DNA of 64,000 nucleotides from Candidatus Levyibacteriota bacterium (lineage in GTDB: Bacteria; Patescibacteriota; Microgenomatia; Levybacterales; UBA12049): NCBI GenBank assembly GCA_052034235.1, contig JBPOIT010000005.1, positions 49,698-113,697 on the forward strand, written 5' to 3'. Position numbers and translations under genes: made by a program. This document shows positions 1,181 to 55,984 of this stretch, one piece after another (the stretch's first letter is position 1; the number at the start of each line of letters is the position of its first letter). The notes under the pieces are model-generated. The model saw only the letters and a list, made by a program, of their open reading frames with translations, ran no database searches and was not told the DNA's origin.

Positions 1181-3640
1181 TTATTCGCTAGCTGAATTTT
1201 GGGGAGACATGTTTCTAAAAGCTTTTCGCGCAGCTAACTTTTTGATATTTTTGATAGAGCTTCCACCTACGGTGTATTCCCTTGGTTCTTCACCCGGTAT
1301 GGTAATACGAACAGTGCATGTAAATTTTCTTTCAGGTCCTGAAACCTCTGTTATTTCATAGTGTGGTTCCTCCCATCCTTGACGACTCGCTAACGTTTGC
1401 AAAGCTTCGAGATAATTTCCTTGATTAACATGTACAGGTCTATCTCTTCGTGGAACATTTGAATAAATGATATTTTCGTATTCCCTATTTGGCATATGAC
1501 TTCGTGCCTGCTTGAGAACATCTTTTGCAGCAGCAGTTTCAACTTGATTTCGACTGGATCCTGTAAATTCATGTGATTGAAGTGTCACATCTCCAAAAGT
1601 GACGCTTGCGGTAACTTTGAATAATGGGTTATCTGGTGGCCCTTCTTGTGTAACCTCATAATTCGGAGGATTCCATGACTTAGTTTTGCACATTTCCTTG
1701 AGTTTTTTCCTTAAATCTGTTGTGGTATATTTATCTTGTGAAACATCTTCAACAGGGCTTTGAGAAATTTTCGAAAGGACATTCCATAACGCTAATTGTT
1801 CAGATTTAGTTTGAGAATGAGCTGTGATTTGGTCAGAGGTCATCGGTGTATCACCTATCTGCATAGTTGCAGAAGTGGTAGATTGCGGTTCATACGCTAA
1901 TCCATGTTCCTGTGTTGTAAATTCTGGAGCAGACCATACTCCACGTTGCTCTCCTAACTGAACAATTTGAGGTGCTAATTGGGGATTTTCATAGATATGC
2001 GCAAGGACATCTGATTTTAATCTTGCAACGGATCCATCTTCCAATACCGTTCCTCGTAAAATCAAATACTGATCATATACTGATAATCTACCATCAATTA
2101 GTCTCCTTTGCACTTCTACTCCTACATTTTCCGGAATAACTCCATCACGAGAGGTATCCCTAACAACTCTCGTAAATAAACTTGGATCTACCGATCCTAA
2201 GTCTTTTTGCTTTTGCACTCTAGCTACTTCTCTTTTGGATTCAGCGACATAAAATTTTTTCGTATGTATTTTTTCATTTGTAGTTTGAGAATTTAATCTT
2301 CGTGCCATTTTATCGAGTTGGTCAGGTGTATAGGGAGACTCTTCACCTCGCATATGAGCTATAACTATTCTTTGATTCACCAAACTCGCATGAAGTCTGA
2401 GACCAATACCTCCAGGTGCGTAAGCATCAACACCCATGGCCATATGTCCTTCTGGTTCTACGCCGAATGAAGCTCTACCATAAAGGACTTGTAACCTATC
2501 ATTTACTTCGTCTAGTGGCTCTCCAGATTTATTCATTGCTGCATTTTGATATATTATTCTTATATCTTCTGAATCCGGATCACGTACTAATCCATGCTGA
2601 TTCCTGTAGAGTGCTGGTAAACCATGACGTGCCAAATACTTACCAAAAGCAGTATTTAATTTTATTTTTGCCTCTTGAACGATTTTATATCCTGTCATAT
2701 CTTGACCAACCTGAATGATATTTCCATCCTCATCAGTGGCTAATCCGCTTTGAGAATCATACATTACTAACGATCCTTTTCTTGATCGGTCTCTTTCAAG
2801 TGCATCCGCTACAGAGCTGAGTAATGTAGCTTCTCCAAAACGGGGATGACTCGGATCTTTGAGTATTTCACTAAATTCTTTAGGGCTCATTCGTCCTGCA
2901 CTCGTAAATGCCGTTTGGGTAATCGAGGTTTTATCACGATCATTAAATGGAACATGCAACGTCAGTGTTGGTCTTGTTTGTCCAGGTAATAAACTCAAAC
3001 GGGATGCTGACAATGGACGAGGCAGCATAGGTGTAACAGTATCACTACCTCGATACCCCGTGAAGCCTCTTGCTTCAGCTTCTACGTCAATAGCTGTATT
3101 CGGTCGAACAACAGCGGAGACCTCTGATACTGATACTTGTAACGTATGTGTATTTGCTGGTTCTGTTACCACACCAAGTCCATCATCTAAATCTTTTGCT
3201 GTACTCGGGTCAATAGTTATGCCGTGCACTTCTTCACGACCGGTAAGTATCGCTTTGAGCTTGGGTAATGCGGCAACTTCACGCATAACTTCTGGAGGAA
3301 ATTCAAAACGCTCCACAATACCCGTTGCTCTTACTCGCCGTGGAGATGAAGCAGGTGCGGGTTCCTGTGCTTGTGTTTCAAAAATGACTCCTCGATCTGC
3401 TGGTTTTGTAGTCGGAGGAGGTGTATCTGAGGTTTCCCGGGGCTTTTCAGGTTCTGCAGGAGTTAAGGATGCCTGAGGAGCACTGATCCCCGGAGTGCTA
3501 TCTCTTCCACGTAGAATGGCACGTGTGGGTTCATGAGTAGAGGAAATTGGCCCAAGATGTCGGAGACCATCAGCTCCCAATCGACTTGGTGGGACCGGAT
3601 AACTTGGTCTATCTTGACCTCCTGAAAATTCAACACCCAT
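1181..3640 (-). CDS. RNase II/R-family 3'-5' exoribonuclease (RNB domain) fused to two C-terminal dsRNA-binding domains. It has an N-terminal MGVEF tag and a Pro-rich linker
   Basis: RNB motif I: HGITIDPSTAKDLDDGLGV aligns to E. coli RNase II VTIDSASTEDMDDAL. TVTPMLPRPLSASRLSL aligns to FNIPMLPRELSDDLCSL. The C-terminus carries two dsRBD-like units (…GPPDNPLFKVTASV…AAAKDVL and …GPERKFTCTVRI…GGSSIKNIKKLAARKAF). No cold-shock or S1 domains are present. The N-terminal ~150 aa are low-complexity. Confidence 0.75.
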   Translation of the reverse strand: MGVEFSGGQDRPSYPVPPSRLGADGLRHLGPISSTHEPTRAILRGRDSTPGISAPQASLTPAEPEKPRETSDTPPPTTKPADRGVIFETQAQEPAPASSPRRVRATGIVERFEFPPEVMREVAALPKLKAILTGREEVHGITIDPSTAKDLDDGLGVVTEPANTHTLQVSVSEVSAVVRPNTAIDVEAEARGFTGYRGSDTVTPMLPRPLSASRLSLLPGQTRPTLTLHVPFNDRDKTSITQTAFTSAGRMSPKEFSEILKDPSHPRFGEATLLSSVADALERDRSRKGSLVMYDSQSGLATDEDGNIIQVGQDMTGYKIVQEAKIKLNTAFGKYLARHGLPALYRNQHGLVRDPDSEDIRIIYQNAAMNKSGEPLDEVNDRLQVLYGRASFGVEPEGHMAMGVDAYAPGGIGLRLHASLVNQRIVIAHMRGEESPYTPDQLDKMARRLNSQTTNEKIHTKKFYVAESKREVARVQKQKDLGSVDPSLFTRVVRDTSRDGVIPENVGVEVQRRLIDGRLSVYDQYLILRGTVLEDGSVARLKSDVLAHIYENPQLAPQIVQLGEQRGVWSAPEFTTQEHGLAYEPQSTTSATMQIGDTPMTSDQITAHSQTKSEQLALWNVLSKISQSPVEDVSQDKYTTTDLRKKLKEMCKTKSWNPPNYEVTQEGPPDNPLFKVTASVTFGDVTLQSHEFTGSSRNQVETAAAKDVLKQARSHMPNREYENIIYSNVPRRDRPVHVNQGNYLEALQTLASRQGWEEPHYEITEVSGPERKFTCTVRITIPGEEPREYTVGGSSIKNIKKLAARKAFRNMSPQNSASE

Positions 3641-3650
3641 ATAAGCCTAT

Positions 3651-3659
3651 ATTATACCA
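3651..3659 (-). promoter_or_regulatory. Extended -10 (TGGTATAAT) 10 nt upstream of the ATG of the RNB gene. It overlaps the stop codon of the upstream gene
   Basis: The minus strand reads TGGTATAAT-ATAGGCTTAT-ATG. The same TATAAT-ATAGGCTyTw-ATG arrangement precedes the 3652..4746 gene. Confidence 0.45.
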
Positions 3660-4746
3660 TCTTTCCTCCCGTTACCGCGAGGATTTTACTTACCTGTTCA
3701 TCAACTGCTTTTGCACTTACAGATACAATTAATTCTCTATATGCACTCTTACTTACCGATGATTCAAAAAATGGATCAAAAAATTTCTCTCTCGTTGGCC
3801 TAATCCTATCTCTAGCCTCACTTCTAATTATTCCTGTCACTTCTGCCCATCTACTTTCGCCACTTTCTTGGGCTGTTATAGTTAACGCAGATAAAAAATT
3901 TGTTAAATTATGAGTACTTACCGTTTTTGGATAAGAAGGTAATAAGTACTCATGACTATGCAAATTATGTAATCCTGAATAGGACAAATTTGGCCATGTA
4001 AATAATTCTACTAAATGATCAACACTTGGTGGGATTCTGTGATGCATATAAGGATTTATATAATCACATACTGATAATCGAACATTTGGAATTTCATCAA
4101 CAATTTTCCGTACTTTTTTATCAATTGCTGCATATTGATCTCTGGTCGGAGTCGGACCTCTCCCTGAATAAAATACAAGATCAAGATCAGCAGGTTTATT
4201 TTTCGAACTTGGTTGTACATATGTTCCCAATGCATCCCTAACAAGCATGCCACCTGATGCACCACTCCCTACAAGAACAAGCCCTGCACCTGTAAAACCG
4301 AACGTATTATACTGTGATTCCATTTCTCCTTCAACAACCTGCATAACTTTAGCAACATCTGGATGGGTGAGCTCATTCATGAGTTGTGTATGGTTAGCAA
4401 CTGCTTCAGCTATTGTAGTTACAGGTTCTCTGACGAGTGAAATAGCATTTTGACGTCGCTCTTCTAATTGATCAAGGGGCATGCGTCTTTGCGGGTTATC
4501 CCATGGTGTTTGAACACGATCCTGTACAAATCGAGCAACCCGTACACTTAACAATCGAGCAGCACCCGAAGTTCTAGATACTTCTGCTCTTTCACCATTA
4601 TCTTCAATTATTCCTCCATTTAAGGCTGTTGTTGGGGATAAAACATTAGGTATAGGTCCAATTCGTGACAATTCTTTCCACCCGCCTGAGTCTCTATTTG
4701 TTGTTACTCTTCTTTCAGAATTTCCTCTGACATTTTCTATCCCCAT
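3652..4746 (-). CDS. Tagged Pol-beta-superfamily nucleotidyltransferase whose head domain resembles poly(A) polymerase / CCA-adding enzymes
   Basis: Motif GGMLVRDALG…(16 aa)…DLDLV matches the PolyA_pol/CCA head signature GGxVRDxLLG…DxD. N-terminal MGIENVRGNSER tag. Confidence 0.45.
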   Translation of the reverse strand: MGIENVRGNSERRVTTNRDSGGWKELSRIGPIPNVLSPTTALNGGIIEDNGERAEVSRTSGAARLLSVRVARFVQDRVQTPWDNPQRRMPLDQLEERRQNAISLVREPVTTIAEAVANHTQLMNELTHPDVAKVMQVVEGEMESQYNTFGFTGAGLVLVGSGASGGMLVRDALGTYVQPSSKNKPADLDLVFYSGRGPTPTRDQYAAIDKKVRKIVDEIPNVRLSVCDYINPYMHHRIPPSVDHLVELFTWPNLSYSGLHNLHSHEYLLPSYPKTVSTHNLTNFLSALTITAQESGESRWAEVTGIIRSEARDRIRPTREKFFDPFFESSVSKSAYRELIVSVSAKAVDEQVSKILAVTGGKMV

Positions 4747-4756
4747 AAGAGCCTAT

Positions 4757-4765
4757 ATTATAACA
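4757..4765 (-). promoter_or_regulatory. Extended -10 (TGTTATAAT) 10 nt upstream of the ATG of the nucleotidyltransferase gene
   Basis: The minus strand reads TGTGTTATAAT-ATAGGCTCTT-ATG. Confidence 0.45.
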
Positions 4766-4933
4766 CAGCAATAATTTTTGTAAATTACTAGGAGATTCCA
4801 TATCAGGACAATTGGTTTTTCTTAATTTCACGCTTTTTAAAATATCACACTTTTGGTAGTAAAAAATTGCAAATCTATTTCACTAGGTGCTTGAGGATAG
4901 TATATTAATACAAGCTCATCACAATGAAAATGT

Positions 4934-7741
4934 CTATTCTTGAGTATTCCTTGCGCTTTGTTCACTCAGACGGATAAGTTGTATCATATATGCATCTTTT
5001 CTTGGTCCTTCTAGATTTCGGACAATATTCTCAAACGCCCTTAACGTTACCTCAGTATCCATTCCATAGCTTATTTGTTTTTCAACGAGAGATCGAAGTA
5101 ATATTACTCGTTGACTATCAGTTAATTTAGTTTCTGGTGAAATGAGTCTATTTTGTACTGTTGTAAATAGTGTTTCATTTGCAGGTAAAACCCGTATCAC
5201 ATCTATATCCCAATCAGTAACTTTAATATCCTCCAATGTGTGTAAAGCACCCTCAGTGTCACCAGTTTTTACCTGACCTTCAAAAAGCTTATGATACACA
5301 TACTCACTTAATACTGATTCTCCAATCTCTTCTTTAACTGTTTGGAATAATTGGTTACCCCCTATATCAATTTGTGCAACTGCTAGATCGAGTAAATACT
5401 CTTGTCTTTTTTCAGGCGAAAGAGTTCTATCAGCTCTTACTGAGACAGCACTCGCATCGATTTCCGCATTTAGTCTTTCTTTTTCAGCAGCAGGAGGTGG
5501 ATCTTCAGTATAGATATCCGCTAAATTTTGCATTGCCATAGTACGAAATTCACTACGCGTTTCACCGATAATCTCATATAATTCATTTTTATCAGCATCA
5601 GTTAAAATACCATATGATTTTAATCCATTTCTTGCTGCAATCGATCTTTCCTGTGGGTCTTTTATCGTTCTAATTTTATCCATAGCATTAGTTACATCTC
5701 TCTCGGCTTTAGTTGTATCTCCCGTTTGCATAGCTTTTTCTCCTGCTTCCATATATCCGTCAACTATAACACGAGAAAATTCATCTAAAGTAAAACTTCT
5801 TACAGCATCTGTGCTTTTCCCAATTCTAGCCAAATATGCATTTTGTATCCTGGCAACACCTAGTTTATCCCCATTAGCTGCATAAGTCCTCCCTAACTGA
5901 AATAATTGTATGAGTGCCATATCACTTTCAGAAATATCAAGTATGTGTGCTTCTGCTTGTGGATAGTGACTAGCTGAAGGTTCATCCATGTAGCGATCTG
6001 CTAATGCTTTAAGTAATGCATCTCGACTAATATTGTCTTCAGGATTTGTTTTCTTTTCCAAAGAACCAACAAGTTCCTCGGCATCCACCAATGTTAGTGA
6101 TTCTTCTCCAGGAGAGAAAATCGGAGTGTCAACACGCTCCCTATGTAACATTGCTGTATATATAGAAGCCTGTATTTCTACCAAACTGCTCCGAAGAATG
6201 CCATCAAGGTCACTATCTCCTGTATTAAATTCTACATAATCCATTTGATCAGCTATTGCTCTCGCTGTATCGATATACCCGGTTTGTGCGTATAAAATAG
6301 CTATATTCCCGCGCAACTCGTTTCTTGTTAGTTCAGGTATACTAAATTCATCTTCTACAAATTCTCCTACTTCAATTAGTTGTCTTGCTTTGTCCATCTC
6401 TGCTTTTTCACTCTCTGGAGAAATATTTGCAGCTAGTTTTGCCATCTTTATTTGAGTGTTAATAACACCTATTCCATGTGATTCACCAATGCCTTGTGAT
6501 AAAAAAGTGCTTGTCTCTCTGAATCCTTCAACCAAATCTTCCGGTGGAGGTAATTCCAATTCTTTGAATAAACTGAGTAGATAACCATATTTAAGCAAAC
6601 GTCTACCAGGTTCATCATCTGCGGCTGATCTTTGGAATTCTCCTATTAATGCTTGAGCTTTTGCTGCAGGATCGTATGGTTGACCTGATTCTGCTGTGAC
6701 TCCCCTTGCTTCAGGCAAAACTTCTTCCTGCCCCTCTTCTAGTGTAATTGCTGGCACAACACTCAGAGCAGGCCTTGCAGGAGGTGTTTCGTCGACCATA
6801 CTCTCATCAGTGTCATCTCCAGGATGGTGTATTACATCTCCGGGTGGAGCTGATACAGTTTGTTGTGCATCACCATCAGTAGTAGTCGGTGATCCGGGTA
6901 GAATTCCTTCAGGGACTTTTCTACCAGCCTTCGCGTAATCAACTTCAATCCACTCACGAACGACATCATTAGGGGGCTCTTTTCCTTCATGATCATTTCT
7001 ATATAACTTTTTTCTCCATTCTGTACGTTTTGAGATTATAAATTCTATTGAAGGCAGTTGAAACCTATCTCCTAAAGCTGGCTGTTCAATCACATCTCTT
7101 CCTTGTAACATAAAATCCTTCGGCTCAACTCTTAGTACCTCAGGATGAACGTTCAAATCCTCTGGAATTTCTTCACCTGCAACTCGAAAATATTCTCTCT
7201 TCCATCTTCTCACTTCATCTGGTGGAGGCTCGGTACCGTCATGCTCACTTCTATATTGCTCAGCTCGCCATCCTGATATTATTTCGATCATAACTGATAC
7301 TGGTGGTGTCGTTAGAGGTGCTGATGTTTTTTTTCTCTCTGCTGGAGGCTGAGGTACATCAGGTTTACCTGAGACTGGCTCTTCGGTAACTTCTGGCGGT
7401 TCTCCACCTGCTCTGCTTTCTGAAACTCTTGGTGGTAAGGTAGGTTCCACTCCTGTATCGCTTGGTGTAGGTTTATCAGGTGATACTTTTGGTCCTTCTC
7501 CATCTCCACCATTTCGTGGACCTTCTGCTGTAGCTGTAGGATAAATTCTCCCTTTTAAAGAACCGCCCGGTGGTATTGGTTGTCTACGTGTTTCAATCGT
7601 CGCTGGAATTTGAGGAGTTGCACCTAAATCAACACCAGCTCTCCGAATGCCAGAATCTATAGTCGGACGGGTACCTCCCACTCCCGAATTCCCAGTTTGT
7701 CCATCTAAGCCTCTTTTTCCTCCTTGCCCTTCAACTGCCAT
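4934..7741 (-). CDS. Tagged helical-repeat (TPR-like) protein. It has a duplicated W-rich ~45-aa motif and is a paralog of 7846..10158
   Basis: N-terminal MAVEGQGGKR tag plus a GVDLGATPQIPATIETRRQP motif. An internal duplication (ISGWRAEQYRSEHDGTEPPPDEVRRW / ISKRTEWRKKLYRNDHEGKEPPNDVVREW) is present. The long C-terminal alpha-helical region shares a motif with the next gene (LTDSQRVILLRSLVEKQISYG vs LTDSDRIILFQQIAEKQIQFG). Confidence 0.55.
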   Translation of the reverse strand: MAVEGQGGKRGLDGQTGNSGVGGTRPTIDSGIRRAGVDLGATPQIPATIETRRQPIPPGGSLKGRIYPTATAEGPRNGGDGEGPKVSPDKPTPSDTGVEPTLPPRVSESRAGGEPPEVTEEPVSGKPDVPQPPAERKKTSAPLTTPPVSVMIEIISGWRAEQYRSEHDGTEPPPDEVRRWKREYFRVAGEEIPEDLNVHPEVLRVEPKDFMLQGRDVIEQPALGDRFQLPSIEFIISKRTEWRKKLYRNDHEGKEPPNDVVREWIEVDYAKAGRKVPEGILPGSPTTTDGDAQQTVSAPPGDVIHHPGDDTDESMVDETPPARPALSVVPAITLEEGQEEVLPEARGVTAESGQPYDPAAKAQALIGEFQRSAADDEPGRRLLKYGYLLSLFKELELPPPEDLVEGFRETSTFLSQGIGESHGIGVINTQIKMAKLAANISPESEKAEMDKARQLIEVGEFVEDEFSIPELTRNELRGNIAILYAQTGYIDTARAIADQMDYVEFNTGDSDLDGILRSSLVEIQASIYTAMLHRERVDTPIFSPGEESLTLVDAEELVGSLEKKTNPEDNISRDALLKALADRYMDEPSASHYPQAEAHILDISESDMALIQLFQLGRTYAANGDKLGVARIQNAYLARIGKSTDAVRSFTLDEFSRVIVDGYMEAGEKAMQTGDTTKAERDVTNAMDKIRTIKDPQERSIAARNGLKSYGILTDADKNELYEIIGETRSEFRTMAMQNLADIYTEDPPPAAEKERLNAEIDASAVSVRADRTLSPEKRQEYLLDLAVAQIDIGGNQLFQTVKEEIGESVLSEYVYHKLFEGQVKTGDTEGALHTLEDIKVTDWDIDVIRVLPANETLFTTVQNRLISPETKLTDSQRVILLRSLVEKQISYGMDTEVTLRAFENIVRNLEGPRKDAYMIQLIRLSEQSARNTQE

Positions 7742-10222: not shown

Positions 10223-11032
10223 TTATTGGGAGTATTGATACATCAGCAACGTGTGGTAATCATCCGGTTCTACTATGGGGCTTTGAAGCGAATGAAAACC
10301 TTGTGGAGTTAATACAGGAGAGAGATCACCTTTGACTAAATTGGGGAAAATAACCACTATTCCATTTGGTTCAAGCGCATTTGGTAATAAAGACGCAAGT
10401 TGTGCTACCTCTATGGGAGTACTCAGAACATATTCCATTCCAAATACTGTCACGATATCAGTTTTGGGAATTCCAAGAGTATTTAAATAACTATCTATAT
10501 CTTCTTCAACTATTTGACCCGTAAATCCTGACTCATTTAGACCCTCTCTTGTTAAGTGAGAAAAACCTTTATCAACTAGTGTCATATGCGACAAATCAAT
10601 ACCCAATGTTTCTGCAAACGCTTGTTCTCCTTGTGCCTTACCAGCTCCGAGAGCGAGATACGTTGGTCTCTCAGGCAATGTAAATCCACTTTTATGAATT
10701 TTCCGAAGCAATTCTTTTGCAATACTAATACCTCTTTGAGGAGAGGTAACATCTTCAAAATTATCCCTCCGATCTATAGTACGACCACTTATCTTTATTC
10801 TATCTGAGACACCACTTGCATTTTCTACAGATGCTTCACCATTTCTTTTCTGATGAAGTTCAGTTCCTAGATGAATAGATTGTGTGTATGTGGTAATAAT
10901 TGATCTATGTGTGGCAGGATTATCGGTTATCTGACCACTATGAGTTGTTCCCACATCTTTACCAGAATCTATTAGTTGTGGAATCTTGAATGTTGTTGAA
11001 ACCCTACCTGACTTTGCTATTTCGATACCCAT
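10223..11032 (-). CDS. Tagged class I SAM-dependent methyltransferase
   Basis: Motif I is YLALGAGKAQG (hhhGxGxxG). An acidic post-I residue follows (TLVDKG). C-terminal motifs are IVTVFGMEYV and LEPNGIVVIF. The N-terminal MGIEIAKSGR tag is followed by IDSGKDVGTTH…PATHRS, which resembles motif 2 of the tag. Confidence 0.5.
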   Translation of the reverse strand: MGIEIAKSGRVSTTFKIPQLIDSGKDVGTTHSGQITDNPATHRSIITTYTQSIHLGTELHQKRNGEASVENASGVSDRIKISGRTIDRRDNFEDVTSPQRGISIAKELLRKIHKSGFTLPERPTYLALGAGKAQGEQAFAETLGIDLSHMTLVDKGFSHLTREGLNESGFTGQIVEEDIDSYLNTLGIPKTDIVTVFGMEYVLSTPIEVAQLASLLPNALEPNGIVVIFPNLVKGDLSPVLTPQGFHSLQSPIVEPDDYHTLLMYQYSQ

Positions 11033-12968: not shown

Positions 12969-13460
12969 CTATTTGAATATTGATCGAGCTTTCCTTTTTT
13001 GGTGGCGTTCAGCTTCTTTTCGACTTTTATTACTATTAACTATACCAGCTGCTATTCTTGCACGACGTCTCGCTTTTTGACTCCCTTTTCCGAATTGAAA
13101 TACTGGCATTACTTCACCATTCGCATTTTGTGTTGTACTAACAAATTTTGTAGGAGTAAATGGTCCTAGACGACTCAATTTATGCATTTCTTTTTTTAGT
13201 CTTATACGATCCCCTATTTGAGGGCCTGTTCTCACAGCACTGCCAATTACAGTGCGTGCACTATGAATAGGTTTTTTGGGTGGTGTAATATCTACAGGTT
13301 TGGATGGGCTCAAATCTACGGGAGCACCTCTAAAAGTAGCACGACCAGGATGTGTAGTTGCATCAACACCTGCATGTGAGGTAGTTCCTGATGAAGTATC
13401 AGCTGGACGTTTCCATTTAAGACCTTCAAAACCTTTTCCAAATCTTGTTTCTGCACCCAT
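12969..13460 (-). CDS. Tagged small basic protein with an R/K-rich C-terminus
   Basis: Sequence MGAETRFGKG…HAGVDATTHPGRAT…ARRRARIAAG…RKEAERHQKRKARSIFK. Confidence 0.45.
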   Translation of the reverse strand: MGAETRFGKGFEGLKWKRPADTSSGTTSHAGVDATTHPGRATFRGAPVDLSPSKPVDITPPKKPIHSARTVIGSAVRTGPQIGDRIRLKKEMHKLSRLGPFTPTKFVSTTQNANGEVMPVFQFGKGSQKARRRARIAAGIVNSNKSRKEAERHQKRKARSIFK

Positions 13461-17943: not shown

Positions 17944-19836
17944 ATGTCTATAGCAGAAACCGGTGGTTCCGGAAACCGTGTACATAGTGGAGGATTTGAT
18001 AGAGTATCAAGCAGAGTTGTTTCACGCAGAGAATGTCGTGTTGATTCAGGTCCTGCGACATCCACAGCTAGAATTTCTGAAAGAGCTCCTGTTGTTTCAG
18101 GTCCTACGACACCCGCAGCTAGAATTACTGAAAGCACTCCTGTTGTTTCAGGTCCTACGACACCCACAGCTAGAATTTCTGAAATTAGACACCAAACTTC
18201 TCGAGTTCAAACTCCAGGAGGTGAAGCTGTTTTAGCTCCGGCTAGTGAAGTTAAACCTGCTGCTATTACGGTTAAGGATACCCCCACTATTCCAGACAGT
18301 AAACCCAGAACGAGCGTATATGGTCCCTTTCGTGATGCTTATGACGAGCCCCCAGTTGATACTACAGTAGTTTCTTCCTCTGGTGGTAGCAATGCCAGGG
18401 AAGGAGAGCCTCCTGAAATAGTCGTGGAACAGACACGTGGAGAAAAAGCGAGAAGTGCTTTAGATACCGCTGTTGATGTAGCAACATCTCCCGGTATATT
18501 ATTACCAGCTACATTGGGCGTAGGAGCACTTGCGGTATCCCACCCTGAGCAAGTAGATCGTGTTGTTGGTGCACTAAGTCACCCTGATCCCAAAGTCGTA
18601 GTAGGAACTGTAGCGGCTACTACTGTTGTAGGAATAGGTGCAAGTGCATGGAATAGGTATCTTAAAGGTATACAAAGAAGTGATAAGCCAGCACCTAGCG
18701 ATACATTATATGGCGTAGCAGCAGCAGCACCGCTAGCACATCCACAAGTACTTGATGGACTATCAACTTTAGCTCATGATCCAAAATTTCTTGTAGGTGG
18801 AGCGGTAGTATTTGCTTTAGGAACAGTATTGCCAGTTAATCAAATGATGTCAGAATTTGGTAATTCAGCTATGGAAATAGTAAATAGAGACAAATCTCAA
18901 CCAACACCAAGACATGCAAGGCGTAAACCAGATAGCACAGAATTAATAGGTAGTTTACCAAGAAGTATAAAGGACGCAGTAGTTAACGTACCGGGCCTAG
19001 CAAAGAGAACAGCAGAAAGAGCACAGTTAAATGTAAAAGACGCTTTAGGTGGTGATCTAAGTGCAGTGTTTAATAGATTCCCTATTTCATCAGATGAAGT
19101 AGTAAAGCTAGAAGATAGATATAGAACTTTATACAGCCCATCTCGTTTAGGAATTAGTCAGTATTATACCTTAACCAATTTTGCCAAATTTGGTACTCTA
19201 GCTACAGTTACATCCGCCATCGAATCAGCAGGTATCACAGTTCCACCTGCTGTGGCCGGAGTAATTATTATTGGAAGTAGCAGAAAAGATTTTAAGACAG
19301 CAAAGAAGGAGGTTAAACAAACTCAAGATGATATGAGATTATGGAATTTTAATCGGGCTGCTGCAATAGGTGGAGCAAAAATGGGTGGATTTAAACTTCT
19401 ATTCGGAAGTGCTGGAATAGGAACTTCTTCATTAGCAATTAGTGAATCTTTTGATGTACCAAGAGGAACAACTTCTCTCACATTATGGACTGTAACAGGA
19501 GGTTTATTATGGGATGGCACTCGCTCATTACGTCGTGAACGTGTACGGGCACAAATTACGAATCGCTATGATAATAGAAAGGATAAATTATTAGCCAGAG
19601 GGAATGCAACTTTAAAAAGATATAACGATCTAACTAAACGATTAGATAGTGAAACAGATCCCTCAAAAGCAGCTAAATTACGCGGAGAAAAGGATGAAAC
19701 CTTTAATAGACTACTAGTATTAACAAAAGCCGGTTATGACGGAAAAGCTAAATTTCCTCATTTCGCTGCAGAAACCAAAGAGCATGGGACAATATATGTA
19801 CCTCAAGGCGAATGGCTTCATGGTAAAAGTTCATAA
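17944..19836 (+). CDS. Hypothetical protein with an N-terminal 17-aa tandem repeat and hydrophobic, probably membrane-associated, segments
   Basis: N-terminus MSIAETGGSGNR. Three repeats of SGPxTxxARIxExxPVV are present. Hydrophobic stretches include ILLPATLGVGALAV and VVVGTVAATTVVGIGASAW. Confidence 0.5.
   Translation: MSIAETGGSGNRVHSGGFDRVSSRVVSRRECRVDSGPATSTARISERAPVVSGPTTPAARITESTPVVSGPTTPTARISEIRHQTSRVQTPGGEAVLAPASEVKPAAITVKDTPTIPDSKPRTSVYGPFRDAYDEPPVDTTVVSSSGGSNAREGEPPEIVVEQTRGEKARSALDTAVDVATSPGILLPATLGVGALAVSHPEQVDRVVGALSHPDPKVVVGTVAATTVVGIGASAWNRYLKGIQRSDKPAPSDTLYGVAAAAPLAHPQVLDGLSTLAHDPKFLVGGAVVFALGTVLPVNQMMSEFGNSAMEIVNRDKSQPTPRHARRKPDSTELIGSLPRSIKDAVVNVPGLAKRTAERAQLNVKDALGGDLSAVFNRFPISSDEVVKLEDRYRTLYSPSRLGISQYYTLTNFAKFGTLATVTSAIESAGITVPPAVAGVIIIGSSRKDFKTAKKEVKQTQDDMRLWNFNRAAAIGGAKMGGFKLLFGSAGIGTSSLAISESFDVPRGTTSLTLWTVTGGLLWDGTRSLRRERVRAQITNRYDNRKDKLLARGNATLKRYNDLTKRLDSETDPSKAAKLRGEKDETFNRLLVLTKAGYDGKAKFPHFAAETKEHGTIYVPQGEWLHGKSS
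18046..18200 (+). repeat. In-frame 57-nt tandem repeat, ~2.7 copies
   Basis: tcaggtcctgcgacatccacagctagaatttctgaaagagctcctgttgtt is repeated with a few substitutions. Confidence 0.7.
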
Positions 19837-19874: not shown

Positions 19875-20936
19875 CTACAATTGAGAATAATCACTAACAC
19901 TCATTACCGTATAAGCAGCACTTGATACCTTACCATTAAGAGTGATATCCATATGACTATCTTTGATACCAGTTACATAATCAGGATATGAAAGACCTGA
20001 AACTCTAGCTGCTACTGCTGCACCATAAGAATTCGATGCTATCTCTTGTACAATTCTAGCTGCTAGTTGCATTGCAGCATCTGGATTATTTGGTGCAATT
20101 GTTAATATTCTCAGTCTTGTGTGATCTGTGGGAACCATATCAACTGTATTATTAAATGCCTCAACAGCCAATCCATATACACTCCCATCAAGGTTCATTT
20201 TTCCTACTTTTCGCTTACCAACACCCAATTCAAAATAACTTTCACGTAGAGCAGGATTATCTGGCTTAATGACAGTAAACGCTTTAGCATCTGGATTCGC
20301 CGATCCTGAGATATCCACACCTACATCTTTAACATCTTTTACAATTTTAAATACGTGTCGTTGTACACGTTCTGCTGGAGTAATAGTAAAAGTCAAAGAA
20401 TCCGCCGCTGGTCCTTCTCCAAGCGGTAAAGAAACTTCAGGTTTATGTTTACTATACGTTTCAACTTTTTTATAAGCCGTATTTACATTTTGTGAATTAT
20501 ACGCAGTTCCTTCGGTTGAGACTCCGTTTTCTACTTGCAGAATCACAGCAACCGGTATTCCATCATTCCCAGGAGTGCTTAGAAGTGTTTGTTCCGGATT
20601 AAAACGTAAAGGTTTTTGTGCAGATGATTCTTGTGATTTTGCTTGAGAACCCGATGTAACAGCATGAGATTCTGGTGGATAAACTTGACCATCTGTCCCA
20701 GCACAACCACTTAATGCAAAAACTGCTGCACCAACAGCTGCCGCACCGGTTGTAACTACTCTTCCTGATCTTCTATGAGTTTCACCAAAATGTAATTTTG
20801 ATGTTATAACTGCCGGTTGTGGTTTAGGTTCATCCGTCACTTGACCTTGAGTACGTATCTGCGACCCAGAGATGCGTGATTCCGATAAAGATGTGGGTCG
20901 ATTTAATATGGATCTCCCAGTTTCTTGAAAAGCCAT
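19875..20936 (-). CDS. Putative lipoprotein or membrane-anchored protein
   Basis: N-terminus MAFQETGRS. A hydrophobic segment VVTTGAAAVGAAVFALSGC ends in a lipobox-like LSGC. Confidence 0.4.
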   Translation of the reverse strand: MAFQETGRSILNRPTSLSESRISGSQIRTQGQVTDEPKPQPAVITSKLHFGETHRRSGRVVTTGAAAVGAAVFALSGCAGTDGQVYPPESHAVTSGSQAKSQESSAQKPLRFNPEQTLLSTPGNDGIPVAVILQVENGVSTEGTAYNSQNVNTAYKKVETYSKHKPEVSLPLGEGPAADSLTFTITPAERVQRHVFKIVKDVKDVGVDISGSANPDAKAFTVIKPDNPALRESYFELGVGKRKVGKMNLDGSVYGLAVEAFNNTVDMVPTDHTRLRILTIAPNNPDAAMQLAARIVQEIASNSYGAAVAARVSGLSYPDYVTGIKDSHMDITLNGKVSSAAYTVMSVSDYSQL

Positions 20937-21528: not shown

Positions 21529-22683
21529 TTATTTTTCTTCAAATAAATTAGCAATTTCCTGAAAATAATTTTTAGAATTTATTGTAGTAAATACATGAGG
21601 TAACGGGAAAATATTTTTATTGCCACCGCTTTTTTTCATTTTCATTTCTATACAAATATATTTTTTTTTATAGTCCTCCAAAACTAGATCAATTTCTTGT
21701 CCACCATATTCTCTATAAAAAAACATTGTCTGTTTTGCATTATTATTCTTTCTTTTCTTCTCAATCTCAGCGACGATAAAATTTTCAAATACTCCCCCTT
21801 TATCAGGACGGAGATCTAACTCTCTAAAGTCTTTGACTAAAATATTTCTTATACCGAGGTCATAAAAATATAGTTTTCTATTTTCAGATACTGCTTTTCT
21901 TTGATTTGTTTTAAAAGATGGGAGAGGAATAAGAATATAATTTTTGATAAAAATTTCAATGTAGTTAGAAACAGTTACGGCATTTGCTCCTAGACTATTT
22001 GCGAGTTCTCGCACAGATACTTCTGAACCAATTTGCAATGCAATTTTTGTTAAGATGTCTTTTGCTAATTTTTCATTCTTTAAATCATAAATGTTGATTA
22101 TATCTTTTAGAACATACGTATCTAAAATGTTTTGTAATAAATCCATTTTATCTGTCTCAGCAATCGTATTTTTTGAATATACTTCAGGAAACGAACCAAA
22201 TATCTGTAAAGAATTAAAGATTTTTTCATAAAAACTCTGTCTTTCATACTCTTCAATGTATGTATTCTCATTAATTTCATACAGAGAAAGTGGTAAGCAA
22301 TAACTTTCAGTAAACCTCCCTGCAAGCGTGTCAAAATTTGCTGATTTTTGTCTTAGTTCACTACTACCTGTCGCAATGACTTTTACATTAAACTCATCAT
22401 AAAGAATTTTCAGTGCAACAGTACTTTCTGGATAATTTTGCACTTCATCAATAAGTATTACTTTATGAGCTAAGGCAATTTTCTCAAGATTATCTCTGGT
22501 TGCAGTAAACGATGCTTGATCAGAAATTAAGTCAAAATTAAATACTGGAACTGACAGTTTTGAAGCTATATCTTTTAATATTGTTGTTTTCCCGGACCGT
22601 CTTGGTCCCCATATAAAAAATATTTTTTTACTGTCCCCTTTTAAATAATCTTGCACCTGATTTTCAATATATCTTTGTAACAT
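21529..22683 (-). CDS. AAA+ ATPase of the COG1373 family (AAA domain plus DUF4143)
   Basis: Walker A is GPRRSGKTT, Walker B is ILIDEVQ, and a C-terminal DUF4143-like region contains YFYDLGIRN. Confidence 0.6.
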   Translation of the reverse strand: MLQRYIENQVQDYLKGDSKKIFFIWGPRRSGKTTILKDIASKLSVPVFNFDLISDQASFTATRDNLEKIALAHKVILIDEVQNYPESTVALKILYDEFNVKVIATGSSELRQKSANFDTLAGRFTESYCLPLSLYEINENTYIEEYERQSFYEKIFNSLQIFGSFPEVYSKNTIAETDKMDLLQNILDTYVLKDIINIYDLKNEKLAKDILTKIALQIGSEVSVRELANSLGANAVTVSNYIEIFIKNYILIPLPSFKTNQRKAVSENRKLYFYDLGIRNILVKDFRELDLRPDKGGVFENFIVAEIEKKRKNNNAKQTMFFYREYGGQEIDLVLEDYKKKYICIEMKMKKSGGNKNIFPLPHVFTTINSKNYFQEIANLFEEK

Positions 22684-22868: not shown

Positions 22869-22929
22869 AATCCCGAAATATTGTTAGAATTATATTATTT
22901 AGAACTTTATTAGTTTCAATATATATCTG

Positions 22930-23001
22930 TGAGCCCCGGGGGACTCGAACCCCCAACCAATACCTTAAGAGGGTACTGCTCTACCATTGAGCTAGAGGCC
23001 C
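22930..23001 (-). tRNA. tRNA-Lys (anticodon CUU)
   Basis: The reverse complement is GGGCCTCTAGCTCAATGGTAGAGCAGTACCCTCTTAAGGTATTGGTTGGGGGTTCGAGTCCCCCGGGGCTCA. It folds as a cloverleaf with anticodon loop CTCTTAA. Confidence 0.85.
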
Positions 23002-24445: not shown

Positions 24446-25942
24446 ATGCCCAAACATCATACAAAGAAGAAAAACCTCTTTAGGTCATTTATTGGCTATG
24501 GATTTCATTTATGGATTCTATTGTTTGTTTCAAACATGCTCATTTTCTATAGTTTTAGCATTTTTAGCTTTGGTGCGGAGAAAGATACGAAAGCCGAAAC
24601 AAATCTTGCACAGACAGTATCTGAAACAATTTCACAAGCTGACCTATCCCCTGTCGTCTCGAAACCTATCGTTGGTCGTGTAAAACGTGAACCTACGCCT
24701 AAACCTAATGGACCAGTTATAAGCCTCACTTTTACTGTGCCAGGTATTGGCAGCGCGGGAGGAATGTTCCGACCAACACGATTAAAACGTAATATTACTG
24801 TGTATCTCTATGCAACGGATGTCAATTCAAATGACAATAAAGTAAAACCACTTTATAGTATTCATACGACTGCTTCTTATAATACCAACGAACTTAGTCC
24901 AACATACACTTCATTCATAAACCCGTATATTGAGCTTGGTGACACTGTTAAAAACGGTAAATATCAAGTTGCTTTTGTTACTGATCAGGCTCTTAGAAAA
25001 ATCGTAAAAGATAAGGAAGATGCGATTGGTGGAAAAATTGTCACGATAAGCACACGTGAAAAGGCGATTCTTCCTTCTCAACTCGTCACTATGGGTGACA
25101 CCTCACCTCCAGCCGGAAATAACATCATGGATATCAATGATTATAATGTCGTTGTAGAGTGTTTTGGGAAAACTTCATGCAAGAATTTGAGAAATGCAGA
25201 TTTAAATGATGACGGAGTTGTCGATGGCATTGATTACAATATCATGGCGCGCAGTTTTAGTGCACTTACTTCACAGGGGTTTGCACCACCACAATTGCCA
25301 ACATCCAAACCAACTGAAATAAAGAAGTTTCCAGGTACAACAGCAACACCAAATGCTATAAAAAAGAATGTACCGTCACCTTCTGTTGTCCCGGTGGTAC
25401 AAAAAACCAGCGGGAATCCAGTGGGCGCACTTTTTGGATTTATTTTTTTCGTGCTTATATTTGGAAGTGTCGGATTCTTTGTAGCAACGAAGACAAAATT
25501 TGGTAAAGCATTTTTAGCAACACATCCTCTTCCATTTTTAAAACCAAAACTGGAAAAAGATACAAAAACGACTACTGAAACTCAACCTGATAATTCATCA
25601 GCTGAAATGACCCCTGCGGGAGATGCCACACCTGAGGCAATTGCAGCATCAACTGAGATACCTGTTGCCCAAATTGAAGATGCAAAGAAAGCTACCGAAC
25701 CAGTCCCAACACCTGCAGTGAGAGTTTCGGATGCCAATAGTGTTGATAAAACATATTATGTAAAAAATAAATCAAAAGACGATAAAGGAACGTGGTTTAC
25801 GTTAACTGATGATGCTGGGCCAATTGATGGCTTACTCAAATCTGGAGATATCGAGGATGGGTTTGAAAGAATCAAAGGCACATTGGTACAGGAAAGTGGA
25901 AAGAAATATATTCTAATAACCGAAGTTCTACCGTCAGAATAA
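24446..25942 (+). CDS. Membrane-anchored protein with dockerin-like repeats
   Basis: N-terminal TM segment. DLNDDGVVDGIDYNIMARSF matches the dockerin D-x-N-x-D-G-x-V-D-x-x-D-Y pattern. A second TM segment is GALFGFIFFVLIFGSVGFFVA. Confidence 0.45.
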   Translation: MPKHHTKKKNLFRSFIGYGFHLWILLFVSNMLIFYSFSIFSFGAEKDTKAETNLAQTVSETISQADLSPVVSKPIVGRVKREPTPKPNGPVISLTFTVPGIGSAGGMFRPTRLKRNITVYLYATDVNSNDNKVKPLYSIHTTASYNTNELSPTYTSFINPYIELGDTVKNGKYQVAFVTDQALRKIVKDKEDAIGGKIVTISTREKAILPSQLVTMGDTSPPAGNNIMDINDYNVVVECFGKTSCKNLRNADLNDDGVVDGIDYNIMARSFSALTSQGFAPPQLPTSKPTEIKKFPGTTATPNAIKKNVPSPSVVPVVQKTSGNPVGALFGFIFFVLIFGSVGFFVATKTKFGKAFLATHPLPFLKPKLEKDTKTTTETQPDNSSAEMTPAGDATPEAIAASTEIPVAQIEDAKKATEPVPTPAVRVSDANSVDKTYYVKNKSKDDKGTWFTLTDDAGPIDGLLKSGDIEDGFERIKGTLVQESGKKYILITEVLPSE

Positions 25943-27442
25943 TAATGAAATTCCCGGCAATGCAGTTCCTATTTGTCTGCCTAATTCTCGCCAATTTATA
26001 CGTTTCACCCGATTTCTATCTTCAATACTAACGGTCTCACCAACACCCCTGCGCACTGGAGGTTTTGCTTTTATAACGTCAACTGCTTCTGAAATTAAAT
26101 TTGCAGCGGAGACAAATCTCATTGATAAATCGCGACGCCATTCAGGCTCAGATCCATCAACACCTGCTGCACCATTAGTCTCGGTTTGAGAATAATCTCT
26201 CACGATATTACTGGTAGTTGATTGTGTCGGCCCCTGCATAACAGACAAAATTTCTGAACCAGACACAAATTCAGCTTCTTTTGTCCTAGTAAAAATAATT
26301 TGTCCTGCATCTAACACTTGTCGTAAACGAGCTGAAGCAGCTTCTGTATCGACACTATATGGAAAATCGTTAACCTCTTCAGGAGACTGATTGTCTGTAT
26401 CTTCAGATTGAGGTTTTTTCAAAATAGTAGTTGGACTATCTGGTTGTGGCAAAGTTGCAATGCCGTGCGACACTTCTGTTTGTACGGCTGCCGAAACTTT
26501 TTGTATTTGCTGTGAAAGTTGCTGAGGAGATTGTTCTGTTTGTGTGAGCAAAGCAGTTTGCGTATCAATCAGCGTTTGTACTTTTGTTTTTGTCTGTTTG
26601 ACAAACGGTTCATCCTTTTGCACCAAAACGTTCGTTATTTTAGATAATTGAGTTGCCAATTTGGCTTTAACTGCTTTACTTATTATTTCTGCATTAAATT
26701 TTGTTTGTTTAGTGTCAGTTTTTTTTTCATCCTGATCTTGTGTTGCTTTGGCTGCTTCCCTACGAGCAAGTAAAGTCCGGTAAAGTAACGCAGTTGAATG
26801 TTTTTTAGAAATATTTTCGGCTTTTTTCGAATTCAGCTCGTCAAATCCCGGAATTGGCTCAACAAGTACTCCATCTTTTGTATTTTCTCTCTTTTTTGCT
26901 AGTACTTCCGCTTCAGCTTTATTTATTTTCAACTGATGCGCAGCTGACACTTCACGCAATTCTTTCAGGATTTCTTGTTGTTGCACAATTGAATCAGAAG
27001 GCCTTGATTTAGATAATGTATCATCAGGTAATTGAAATTCTCTCGTAGTTTTTAACAAATTTTCACCTGTTAGTTTTTTGGGTTCTGGAATTGTTAGATT
27101 AAGAGGTGTAGGTACGAATTCGACAAATGTCGGCTGCGTGGATTTCGGAATTGTTTTTGGCGCTTCAGTGCGATTTGCGCGCATAGGTAATCCGGTTGCA
27201 TGATCCCCCAAACCTACCCGACGAGGAACATCACCTGAGGAACGAATTGTCATTTTTTCATTTCCAATATCAACTTTTCGTCCAGCAGCAGACATCTCAG
27301 GTTTACGGAAGGTGGGCGCTGAATATTCAGATAAACTTCGACTCGAGAATGTCGGTTTACTCATGCCCGCGGATCCTCGTTCGATTCCGCTGCTTCTTGT
27401 TTCTGTTGAAACTCCTCTTGATATTGTTGCTGTTCCTGCCAT
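25934..27442 (-). CDS. Hypothetical Q/K-rich coiled-coil protein
   Basis: Long ORF with no recognisable domain. Confidence 0.4.
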   Translation of the reverse strand: MAGTATISRGVSTETRSSGIERGSAGMSKPTFSSRSLSEYSAPTFRKPEMSAAGRKVDIGNEKMTIRSSGDVPRRVGLGDHATGLPMRANRTEAPKTIPKSTQPTFVEFVPTPLNLTIPEPKKLTGENLLKTTREFQLPDDTLSKSRPSDSIVQQQEILKELREVSAAHQLKINKAEAEVLAKKRENTKDGVLVEPIPGFDELNSKKAENISKKHSTALLYRTLLARREAAKATQDQDEKKTDTKQTKFNAEIISKAVKAKLATQLSKITNVLVQKDEPFVKQTKTKVQTLIDTQTALLTQTEQSPQQLSQQIQKVSAAVQTEVSHGIATLPQPDSPTTILKKPQSEDTDNQSPEEVNDFPYSVDTEAASARLRQVLDAGQIIFTRTKEAEFVSGSEILSVMQGPTQSTTSNIVRDYSQTETNGAAGVDGSEPEWRRDLSMRFVSAANLISEAVDVIKAKPPVRRGVGETVSIEDRNRVKRINWRELGRQIGTALPGISLLF

Positions 27443-42535: not shown

Positions 42536-43474
42536 ATGAGTCGCACATGTGAAGCAAGAACATCAAGTGTTGCCGTACGTGAACAGGGGCTAAATGCTGA
42601 ATCATTGGGTTTATTAAATTCAATGCGCAATTTTGATGAATTGGATTCATTTATTAGTCGTGCTGTGAGTGCTACACCCAAGAGCCCTTCGAGTTCAATT
42701 TCAGAATTCTATCAAAGATTTGCTGATAACATCCCTCAGAAAATTCCGAGTAGCGCTCAATCCATAGCTATGGACGCGGTGGCTCAACAAGATCCAAAAG
42801 GTTTAGGTGTCCTTGTATTACTTAATATTCGCTCGATAGCTTCTGGCGTTGATTCATTCCAGGAGCATTTCAAAGGAGACAGGGATGAAATAATGCAAGC
42901 CGCGATTACTGAAGTACTTGCCAATCCCCCCAAACCTACTAATAAAGCTACTGTGCCTAATCAAATTAATAAGACTGTAAGAGCTGAAGTTTCACGATTC
43001 ATAGCTACAAGAGATGGAATTCCTGTAGAGTGGTTTAGAAAGCAAGAATTTGACGAGCTAATTGCTCAGATTGACGGCATAATTGATTCGGGTAAATTAA
43101 CCAAAAATGGTAAAGTAGATGAAAGCTTGTGTTTTAAATTCGCAAGAAATTTAAATCTTGATGAAAAAGATCTTTTCGAACTGATTAGATTTAGAAGTAT
43201 CTATTGGGACACAGATACTACGTTAGACCGAGGTTCTATTCCCCCTCCAGCTGCACCCGACATCGATTCGACAATAAACCGTATCGATCTAGAGAACTCG
43301 CGAAAAAAACGTAAGAGATATGCACATAAATACGCTAATCAAATACTTAAATTGAGATTTGGATCAGCAGGTAAACCTTATACCCTTGATGAAATTGGGG
43401 AGATATTAGGACTTTCAGGCACTCGGATTGGGCAAATTATTGCAGAGGAAACATGGGCTTTGCGTCGCTTATAG
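42536..43474 (+). CDS. Hypothetical protein with a C-terminal sigma-70 region-4-like HTH
   Basis: YTLDEIGEILGLSGTRIGQIIAEETWALRRL resembles sigma70 r4 (TLEEVG…TRERIRQIE…AL.KLR). Confidence 0.4.
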   Translation: MSRTCEARTSSVAVREQGLNAESLGLLNSMRNFDELDSFISRAVSATPKSPSSSISEFYQRFADNIPQKIPSSAQSIAMDAVAQQDPKGLGVLVLLNIRSIASGVDSFQEHFKGDRDEIMQAAITEVLANPPKPTNKATVPNQINKTVRAEVSRFIATRDGIPVEWFRKQEFDELIAQIDGIIDSGKLTKNGKVDESLCFKFARNLNLDEKDLFELIRFRSIYWDTDTTLDRGSIPPPAAPDIDSTINRIDLENSRKKRKRYAHKYANQILKLRFGSAGKPYTLDEIGEILGLSGTRIGQIIAEETWALRRL

Positions 43475-55978: not shown

Positions 55979-55984
55979 TTTACT

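Follow-up and report, generated by a model that had tools for sequence, protein, structure and literature searches.

A predicted RNB exoribonuclease with tandem double-stranded RNA-binding domains, and its orphan neighbour, in a Patescibacteria island of leader-bearing genes

We analysed a 64,000-nucleotide stretch of a Candidatus Levyibacteriota genome (Patescibacteriota, Microgenomatia; assembly GCA_052034235.1, contig JBPOIT010000005.1, positions 49,698 to 113,697), hereafter the window, in whose coordinates all window positions below are given. Our subject is a minus-strand gene at 1181-3640, which encodes an 819-amino-acid protein with an RNB exoribonuclease domain and, C-terminal to it, double-stranded RNA-binding domains (dsRBDs), together with the gene that precedes it on the same strand after a gap of 11 nt (3652-4746), which encodes a 364-amino-acid orphan protein with a probable Pol-beta-type nucleotidyltransferase core (hereafter NT). 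Both genes belong to an island that comprises positions ~1-21,000 and, further on, the gene at 25,934-27,442; it is at least 21 kb long, holds at least 11 orphan genes, has a tRNA-Lys gene (22929-23001, minus strand) at its right edge and has its left end outside the window. The Logan run SRR34217540 contains an identical contig of 4.2 kb. The UvrA protein encoded in the window is 80% identical to that of Levyibacteriota-like metagenome-assembled genomes (MAGs), with Gottesmanbacteria, Woesebacteria and other Microgenomates next in order.

The 819-residue protein matches the Pfam family RNB (PF00773) at residues 140-426 (E = 1e-34, 120.8 bits against a cut-off of 29.3), and the RNB motifs picked out in a first-pass annotation of the sequence are present, ITIDPSTAKDLDDGL at residue 141 and TVTPMLPRPLS at residue 201. 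Its catalytic domain (residues ~113-460, 2261-3304, minus strand) was delimited from Pfam and NCBIfam matches, from an alignment to E. coli RNase II (PDB 2id0) and from a six-sequence alignment of the RNB-linker-dsRBD family described below. That annotation had described the motifs as aligning closely to E. coli RNase II, and all catalytic residues of that enzyme are retained: in the HMMER alignment D201/D207/D209/D210 of 2id0 correspond to D144/D150/D152/D153 here, Y253 to Y196, E390 to E323 and R500 to R415, and every one of these positions is an invariant column in the family alignment. The protein therefore has the four motif-I aspartates, the equivalents of Tyr253, Glu390 and Arg500 and the HxGL...Y pattern of RNase II/R enzymes (PDB 2id0/2ix0, 5xgu, 8cdu). 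From the RNB domain and its retained catalytic residues we would expect a processive, hydrolytic 3'-5' exonuclease that releases nucleoside 5'-monophosphates (5'-NMPs).

Outside the catalytic domain the protein departs from these enzymes. RNB exonucleases are single-strand-specific, and their substrate choice is set by cold-shock domains (CSDs) and an S1 domain. Most RNB proteins carry two CSDs before the RNB domain and S1 after it (PMC10516660). The window protein, by contrast, is without CSD1, CSD2 and S1, and has instead a 112-residue leader before the RNB domain and a linker with two to three dsRBDs after it; the families CSD, OB_RNB and S1 (PF08206, PF17876 and PF00575) give no Pfam match to it at E ≤ 0.01, so that the earlier statement that CSD and S1 are lacking is borne out. 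Compared with E. coli RNase II and RNase R, identity within the RNB domain is only ~25-27%. The NCBIfam models for RNase R/II cover residues 112-459 as partial matches (TIGR02063, 100 bits against a cut-off of 598; NF003455, 80 bits against 542), and a sequence search of the PDB places RNase R and E. coli RNase II first (E ~ 1e-13), followed by DIS3-type enzymes.

The linker (residues ~461-551, 1988-2260, minus strand) has no Pfam match and holds a family-conserved E..RR motif, whose residues are invariant in the family alignment (columns E409/R412/R413, or E509/R512/R513 of the full protein). Beyond it, Pfam dsrm matches two stretches (E = 1.5e-13, 51.6 bits against a cut-off of 23; the best at residues 746-810), in agreement with the two C-terminal dsRBDs read from the sequence at first pass. 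The first of them, dsRBD1 (residues ~641-712, 1505-1720, minus strand), is also matched by the Pfam family DND1_DSRM at residues 644-678 and by the NCBIfam RNase III C-terminal model at residues 621-711; the second, dsRBD2 (residues ~741-812, 1205-1420, minus strand), is the most canonical, and the C-terminus of the protein matches isolated dsRBD proteins in the PDB (TARBP2, Xlrbpa). A third dsRBD-like module may occupy residues ~552-636 (1733-1987, minus strand). Pfam gives no match there; hhalign reports P = 4.6e-4, a family dsRBD hidden Markov model (HMM) matches residues 565-622 with a domain E-value of 0.003, the region aligns to clear HxPVF...KKxA dsRBDs of homologues, and positions ~443-510 of the family profile match tandem-dsRBD chains in the PDB. 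The protein is thus predicted to carry two clear dsRBDs and a probable degenerate third (dsRBD0). The RNA-contact patches expected of the dsrm family (GPxH and KKxAK) are only partly retained, as KNIKKLAARKA in dsRBD2 and SRNQVETAAAK in dsRBD1.

The N-terminus is of a different kind. The first ~112 residues (3305-3640, minus strand) form a low-complexity leader composed to 73% of G/P/S/T/R/K/D/E/Q/N, in which no transmembrane, signal or hydrophobic segment was found. It is absent from all homologues examined, which mostly begin 2-60 residues ahead of the ITID motif; to judge from these alignments, the ~112-residue disordered leader was gained uniquely by this Patescibacteria copy. An extended -10-like element, TGGTATAAT, lies at 3651-3659 (minus strand), where it overlaps the stop codon of NT (3652-3654) and precedes the RNB start codon by 10 nt; no -35 element for the RNB gene passed the promoter scan. 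A 31-nt block that runs from the -10 box through the first four codons is 81% identical between the RNB and NT gene starts. Because a 118-codon open frame persists in an AT-rich genome, a -10 box precedes ATG1 and the 5' block recurs in NT, the leader is probably translated, and for the same reasons M119 is unlikely to be the true start. A GGAGG at codons 7-8 of several island leaders was also considered as the mark of a downstream start and rejected, as no in-frame start codon follows it.

When the full RNB-dsRBD protein was compared with 5.8 billion proteins in a word-indexed search, the only matches were itself and RNase R-like proteins (at most 40% local identity, and 27% over the longest alignments), none of them with dsrm; the protein is a singleton in a clustered protein database, and a metagenome scan with its single sequence found no close relative. 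The unique architecture suggested by the word-indexed search was overturned by tblastn against plasmids, in which 149 records matched, eight of which covered 80% or more of the query as a single piece. WP_023383605.1, a 670-amino-acid protein of the Pseudomonas sp. VLB120 plasmid pSTY that is annotated 'RNB domain-containing ribonuclease' and nothing more, has Pfam RNB at residues 4-300 and two dsrm matches, and BLASTP aligns it colinearly with residues 141-804 of the window protein (~690 columns, 162 bits, E = 4e-46), as compared with 93 bits, over the RNB domain only, for the best canonical RNase R-like relative. This colinearity and the Pfam RNB and dsrm matches identify the whole ORF (open reading frame) as an RNB-dsRBD gene. 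The C-terminal half alone (residues 451-819) retrieves the same genes, on five conjugative megaplasmids of Pseudomonas and on the Methylorubrum AM1 megaplasmid. An N-terminal RNB with a C-terminal dsrm is likewise found in plasmid proteins of Mycolicibacterium, Rhodococcus and Streptomyces (608-653 amino acids) and in Methylorubrum; WP_165682211.1, WP_196775344.1 and WP_330351671.1 are further examples.

The same layout is found in viral and metagenome collections. ORFs of 587-737 amino acids occur on eight IMG/VR contigs that are 48-536 kb long (one ORF, on L099, is cut at the contig end); six of these ORFs begin directly at RNB, and the C-terminal sequences that were read carry tandem dsRBD signatures (HAP.F ... 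KK.AK). In metagenomes we found at least 12 ORFs of ~590-730 amino acids with an N-terminal RNB and one to three dsRBDs, among them one (L106) that is colinear over residues 37-708 and has three dsRBD matches. Searched against the PDB, a profile of the subfamily matches RNase R, RNase II and DIS3 over positions 9-330 and Loquacious, TARBP2, ADAR and Staufen over ~443-682; among the chains listed, none matches both the RNB and the dsRBD parts. The subfamily members share with the window protein the order of RNB first, a linker with E..RR and tandem dsRBDs; they differ in length (587-737 amino acids), in mostly starting at RNB without a disordered leader, and in their hosts, which are Proteobacteria, Actinobacteria or unassigned, with a guanine-plus-cytosine (GC) content of 50-72%. 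Some also have a PAPS-reductase-family gene near the RNB-dsRBD gene, which the window does not; examples are pSTY, a plasmid of Mycolicibacterium and a single IMG/VR contig (L091 7121-7921, L093 3060-3902, L099 2717-3574), and the two genes may form a conserved module.

Identity between the window protein and members of the subfamily is 23-30%. The window protein is therefore a very divergent member of an existing subfamily, which is, as far as these searches go, uncharacterised. A literature search for RNB with dsRBD, on plasmids or in jumbo phages, found nothing on such enzymes. The combination had been described at first pass as one not known from characterised RNase II/R enzymes, and in that sense the statement stands, since we found no characterised enzyme that has it; the layout itself recurs on megaplasmids, jumbo-phage-like contigs and in metagenomes, so that the architecture in the window is not a one-off.

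Taken together, these observations lead us, with moderate confidence, to read the product of 1181-3640 as an RNB-dsRBD exoribonuclease of an unnamed subfamily in which dsRBDs replace the CSD and S1 domains, with an orphan NT as its neighbour and with exchangeable leader cassettes in the island around it. Within the RNase II/R (RNB) superfamily, such a protein would be a 3'-to-5' exoribonuclease competent for catalysis, with the place of the two CSDs and S1 taken by a helical linker and by tandem dsRBDs, two or three in number, that follow the RNB domain. The dsRBDs would dock the enzyme on A-form duplex or otherwise highly structured RNA, without sequence specificity, and the RNB channel would then degrade a nearby 3' end processively to 5'-NMPs. 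Several points weigh on the other side: firstly, enzyme activity and RNA binding are, for every member of the subfamily, predictions from sequence; secondly, the canonical KKxAK patch is missing from dsRBD1 and from the putative dsRBD0, which may therefore contact proteins and not RNA; thirdly, the disorder of the leader is a prediction from composition alone; fourthly, the apparent association with mobile genetic elements may partly be a bias of the collections searched, which were those of plasmids, viruses and metagenomes only.

Intact catalytic residues would also be expected of a housekeeping enzyme, that is, of the cell's own substitute for RNase R or RNase II in rRNA and mRNA turnover, with a neutral leader and an incidental NT neighbour. 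No second RNB gene is present within the 64-kb window, and the same leaderless promoter type drives housekeeping genes here, both of which would suit that role. Against it, no RNB-dsRBD homologue exceeds 30% identity anywhere searched, whereas the window UvrA reaches 80%, a disparity more in keeping with a fast-evolving accessory gene than with a core one; the gene sits in an island in which four proteins looked up by cluster are singletons and ten that were scanned have no family beyond weak tetratricopeptide repeats, and its relatives are on plasmids and giant-phage-like contigs. We therefore regard a housekeeping role as improbable.

The neighbouring gene (3652-4746, minus strand) is preceded by a promoter-like site, TTTACA-16-TG-TATAAT (4757-4784, minus strand; 11 of 12 matches, with a TG extension), which ends 10 nt ahead of the NT start codon and points to a near-leaderless mRNA. 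Its product comprises a leader of ~90 residues, the probable core and a helical domain. A putative active-site segment, LVLVGS-GASGGMLVRDALG-...-ADLDLVF, spans residues 156-192 (4171-4281, minus strand) and contains G160-S161, D187 and D189; a third acidic residue, D228, lies further downstream. The first-pass annotation had likened this protein to poly(A) polymerase (PAP) I and CCA-adding enzymes, and the string behind that label, GGMLVRDALG...ADLDL, is present. The class-II head motif has the consensus GGxVRDxLLG...DxD. NT gave no match in Pfam at E ≤ 10, where PF01743 (PolyA_pol) was sought with the full protein and also with the core alone, nor in NCBIfam, PADLOC, PHROG or PDB sequences, so that of the profile assignments proposed for the two genes those of RNB and dsRBD hold and that of PolyA_pol does not.

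A word-indexed search of the 5.8 billion proteins returned NT itself only, and in the clustered database NT forms a cluster of its own. Six homologues (E 2e-12 to 3e-4), none of which matches PF01743 at E ≤ 1, came to light when 1.84 billion representatives were searched exhaustively with phmmer. All of them lie on contigs of 31-41% GC with the same TATAAT-then-ATG leaderless arrangement, which is consistent with Patescibacteria, and NT is an orphan so far seen only in low-GC genomes whose leaderless promoters are in the style of the candidate phyla radiation. A scan of genome contigs with a profile of the NT alignment returned nothing, and the source genome itself was also not recovered. In the alignment of NT with its six homologues (seven sequences), the pattern G...L.....G.....D.D is invariant within LVLVGSGAxGGxLxRExxGT...DID, as are a PSxP motif and a Trp, and a C[DE] is mostly conserved. 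Tested at the level of the pattern, hG[GS]...[DE]h[DE]h...carboxylate is found with the G/D/D positions invariant in 7/7 sequences and the third acidic residue in 6/7.

An AlphaFold model of NT built from this alignment (pLDDT 77.5, pTM 0.79; a single-sequence AF2 model, at pLDDT 39, was unusable) begins with three helices; the LVLVG strand follows and, after a loop and a helix, the DxD strand, then another helix, a strand near the third acidic residue and a helical domain. The topology at the active site is strand-loop-helix-strand (E65-69/H76-82/E96-103), and the predicted strands come in the order that the Pol-beta-like pattern requires. Its best structural neighbours are MNT, ANT/AadA, GlnE and DrrA-type adenylyltransferases, with non-significant scores; the RNA-tailing enzymes GLD-2, TUT1 and TUT7 are among the weak Foldseek neighbours. 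No bacterial class-II structure is among the structural neighbours, an archaeal class-I CCA enzyme stands at rank 42, and Foldseek against BFVD returned nothing. Matches of the NT family profile to designer pentatricopeptide-repeat (PPR) proteins in the PDB were discarded as repeat-summing artefacts. The model shares with MNT, ANT(3'')(9)-AadA and GlnE-DrrA the succession of hG[SG], helix, DxD strand and third acidic strand, with a helical domain after these; no sequence or profile match is significant, and the three extra N-terminal helices, invariant PSxP and invariant Trp of NT have no known counterpart.

From the model and the conserved pattern we regard it as likely that NT has a Pol-beta-type nucleotidyltransferase core (hGS...DxD...D/E), with a helical domain after it. 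NT is not a class-II PAP/CCA enzyme. With PAP I/CCA (PF01743) it has the look-alike string GGMLVRDALG...DLD only, the body and tail domains being absent from the 274-residue fold; the GGxVRDxLG string, which comes just after the canonical hGS turn, is best regarded as a look-alike. Class-II CCA enzymes, sought in the fetched loci for a comparison profile, were not present there. What survives of the earlier label is therefore the motif string and, with modest support, a generic nucleotidyltransferase fold, while the PAP I/CCA class failed in every profile test. Homologues of NT are flanked by IMPDH and adenosine deaminase, adjoin GMP synthase or neighbour a cluster of VirB4/TrbC/PrgI genes of a type IV secretion system (T4SS) (L084 8001-8900, L087 169-1137, L085 8001-8957), contexts that hint at purine nucleotide metabolism or a T4SS link rather than RNA decay.

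RNB and NT may be co-transcribed: no terminator-like site was listed between them in the scan, and, as no -35 element was found for RNB, read-through from the NT promoter is also possible. The pairing is not conserved. A scan of 33 RNB-dsRBD loci with the NT profile found no NT-family neighbour in any of them, and an RNB gene is annotated nearby in none of the six NT-homologue loci inspected, which leaves a functional coupling of the two unsupported. The two genes had been taken at first pass for a polyadenylation-plus-exonuclease decay pathway; beyond gene adjacency that idea is unsupported.

A further form of the pairing would have NT tail RNA 3' ends in a poly(A)-like manner and the RNB-dsRBD enzyme degrade the RNA, both being tagged cargos brought by an episymbiont, or by a mobile element, to the inside of a host cell or of a compartment, so that host RNA is destroyed and its nucleotides are perhaps harvested. 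Nucleotide scavenging is a habit of Patescibacteria. The genes are adjacent on one strand, with the 31-nt block at both starts, and their leaders are each other's significant match when Smith-Waterman scores of leader pairs are set against composition-preserving shuffles (z = 3.9, 3 of 300 shuffles). RNA-tailing enzymes appear among the weak structural neighbours of NT, and one NT homologue adjoins the type IV secretion cluster. RNB enzymes release 5'-NMPs, and passages of a survey of Patescibacteria describe limited biosynthetic capacity and dependence on hosts (PMC12102498). Set beside the absence of the pairing in the 33 and six loci, this evidence makes tailing and delivery, in our judgement, unlikely.

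The island itself yields few families. Among ten of its proteins that were scanned, family assignments are limited to weak tetratricopeptide repeats (TPRs), and PADLOC, PHROGs and NCBIfam gave nothing beyond the RNB match; four that were looked up by cluster are all singletons at 90% identity. GC is 0.37-0.43 in the island and 0.33-0.39 in the rest of the window. Nearly all island genes are of the leaderless type, each with a separate -10 box placed 7-10 nt upstream of the ATG, and all island proteins have N-termini rich in G/P/R/S/T; in the 12 leaders that were scored, polar or disorder-promoting residues make up 64-78%. A start of the form M-[GAT]-[IVA]-E behind a -10 box occurs at six sites against 0.01 expected, for a pattern derived from the same data. 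Other leader pairs that score above shuffles are RNB-p163 (z = 3.8), p935-p770 (5.6), p935-p163 (5.3), p935-p361 (3.6), p770-p361 (3.0) and p269-p353 (5.9). Leave-one-out leader HMMs never recovered the omitted leader, a profile of eleven leaders had no match among the 5.8 billion proteins, and no tag-like N-termini were found in the scanned UvrA-neighbourhood loci of related MAGs. The disordered, tagged N-terminus of the first-pass annotation thus stands as a low-complexity leader; a tag common to RNB and NT is weakly suggested by the pairwise score and finds no support in leave-one-out detection or in the large search.

For one pair of genes the leader is demonstrably modular. The ORF at 2-988 and the 935-aa gene begin with a leader of ~118 codons that is 92% identical in amino acids and 96% in nucleotides (623-988 and 7376-7741, minus strand) and then, across a sharp breakpoint, continue into unrelated bodies; the two copies differ by eight nonsynonymous and two synonymous changes, and the DNA upstream of the genes is unrelated beyond the -10 box. 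This leader looks like a recently exchanged 5' cassette, and at least some leaders therefore behave as exchangeable, promoter-proximal 5' cassettes. In the spacer downstream of RNB, a 44-nt copy at 1093-1136, 86% identical to 5268-5311 in the C-terminal coding part of the 935-aa gene, looks like a relic of a rearranged paralogue.

Two other island genes bear on leaders. In 17944-19836 (plus strand), three tandem 51-nt repeats at 18036-18184 encode SGP(A/T)T.(T/A)ARI(S/T)E, a motif that resembles the ...A.I.T[RH] element of several other leaders; the protein has three transmembrane-like segments. The 353-aa product of 19875-20936 (minus strand) has a polar leader of ~60 residues followed by a lipoprotein-like signal (...AVFALSGC), that is, a leader ahead of a Sec/lipobox signal. 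Of the further neighbours named at first pass, the 'SAM methyltransferase' at 10223-11032 has no Pfam match at E ≤ 10 and shows only a Rossmann-like GxGxG string, while the 163-aa protein does have a basic C-terminus. For the 1435-aa island protein the PDB yielded nothing, and TraC/TraD-like P-loop matches to it (E 0.04-0.09) were set aside as not significant.

One role conceivable for G/P/R-rich leaders is that of sticky disordered regions by which the exonuclease, the transferase, the TPR-like proteins and the basic proteins of the island co-assemble into a degradosome-like body inside the cell. The polar, disorder-promoting composition of the 12 scored leaders, the several leader pairs more alike than shuffles, and the presence of TPR-like paralogues of 770 and 935 amino acids in the island would all suit such a scaffold. 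The basis is purely compositional, however, RNA-binding or scaffold domains were not detected in the partner proteins, and two island proteins have lipoprotein-like signal or transmembrane segments after the leader, which would place them in the envelope or outside the cell more readily than in a body within the cytoplasm. We consider a condensate of this kind highly improbable.

A localisation outside the cell is taken furthest by the proposal that leaders on promoter-proximal cassettes (-10 box, leaderless ATG and an M-[GAT]-[IVA]-E start) are a new export or host-delivery signal and the island an effector arsenal of an episymbiont, from which the RNB-dsRBD enzyme is injected into the host bacterium and in which NT primes or modifies RNA 3' ends. 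Nuclease cargo is typical of polymorphic toxin loci. Like such loci, the island has a near-identical N-terminus (92%, ~118 residues) on unrelated C-terminal parts, with other leaders weakly related; unlike them, it has a leader that is disordered and not folded, and no trafficking domain, secretion system or immunity gene was detected in the window. Specifically, Pfam, NCBIfam, PADLOC and PHROGs show no secretion, capsid, immunity, integrase, relaxase or phage genes in the window, and neither known trafficking domains (LXG, WXG, Rhs, PT-TG) nor an immunity-like small ORF were identified. The passages seen of a survey of Patescibacteria T4SS describe no substrate signal (PMC12102498). We rate this proposal as very unlikely. 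If it were true, host structured RNA (rRNA, tRNA, duplexes) would be stripped to 5'-NMPs and these imported by a nucleotide-auxotrophic symbiont, with an RNB-dsRBD enzyme recruited from a mobile-element family. Export, delivery, cargo or condensate roles of the leaders are at this stage speculation.

Leaderless-type starts, with TATAAT 7-10 nt upstream of ATG and no Shine-Dalgarno sequence, are seen across the window (12969-13460 is one example) and precede several genes outside the island too (21529-22683 and 38660-41569, for instance), and leaderless mRNAs thus seem common in this organism. Elsewhere in the window, an MNT gene at 56505-57130 (minus strand; GSxxRG...SDIDILV) is followed by a HEPN/DUF86-like gene at 55709-56263 (minus strand; R....H motif), which we take to be a typical toxin-antitoxin pair, and a second small two-gene pair adjoins it. 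The gene at 52772-55480 (minus strand) encodes a 902-aa secreted, repeat-rich protein with a C-terminal Peptidase_S74 intramolecular-chaperone domain (E = 1e-15), a domain that occurs in phage tail-fibre-like or surface fibres. The 312-aa product of 42536-43474 (plus strand) has a polar N-terminus and, as its only domain, a C-terminal sigma-70 region 4 (E = 4e-7).

In summary, the RNB-dsRBD architecture is real but shared with other proteins, nothing supports calling NT a 'poly(A) polymerase' or the two genes a 'decay pathway pair', and the 'tag' is weakly suggestive; the main value of the locus lies in the wider RNB-dsRBD family and in the leader cassettes. A whole subfamily, found on conjugative megaplasmids and giant-phage-like contigs and apparently never studied, swaps CSD and S1 for tandem dsRBDs, and could serve duplex- or structure-directed RNA destruction in conflicts between mobile elements and their hosts. 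The Patescibacteria copy indicates that this RNB-dsRBD module can be captured and given a lineage-specific, predicted disordered leader.

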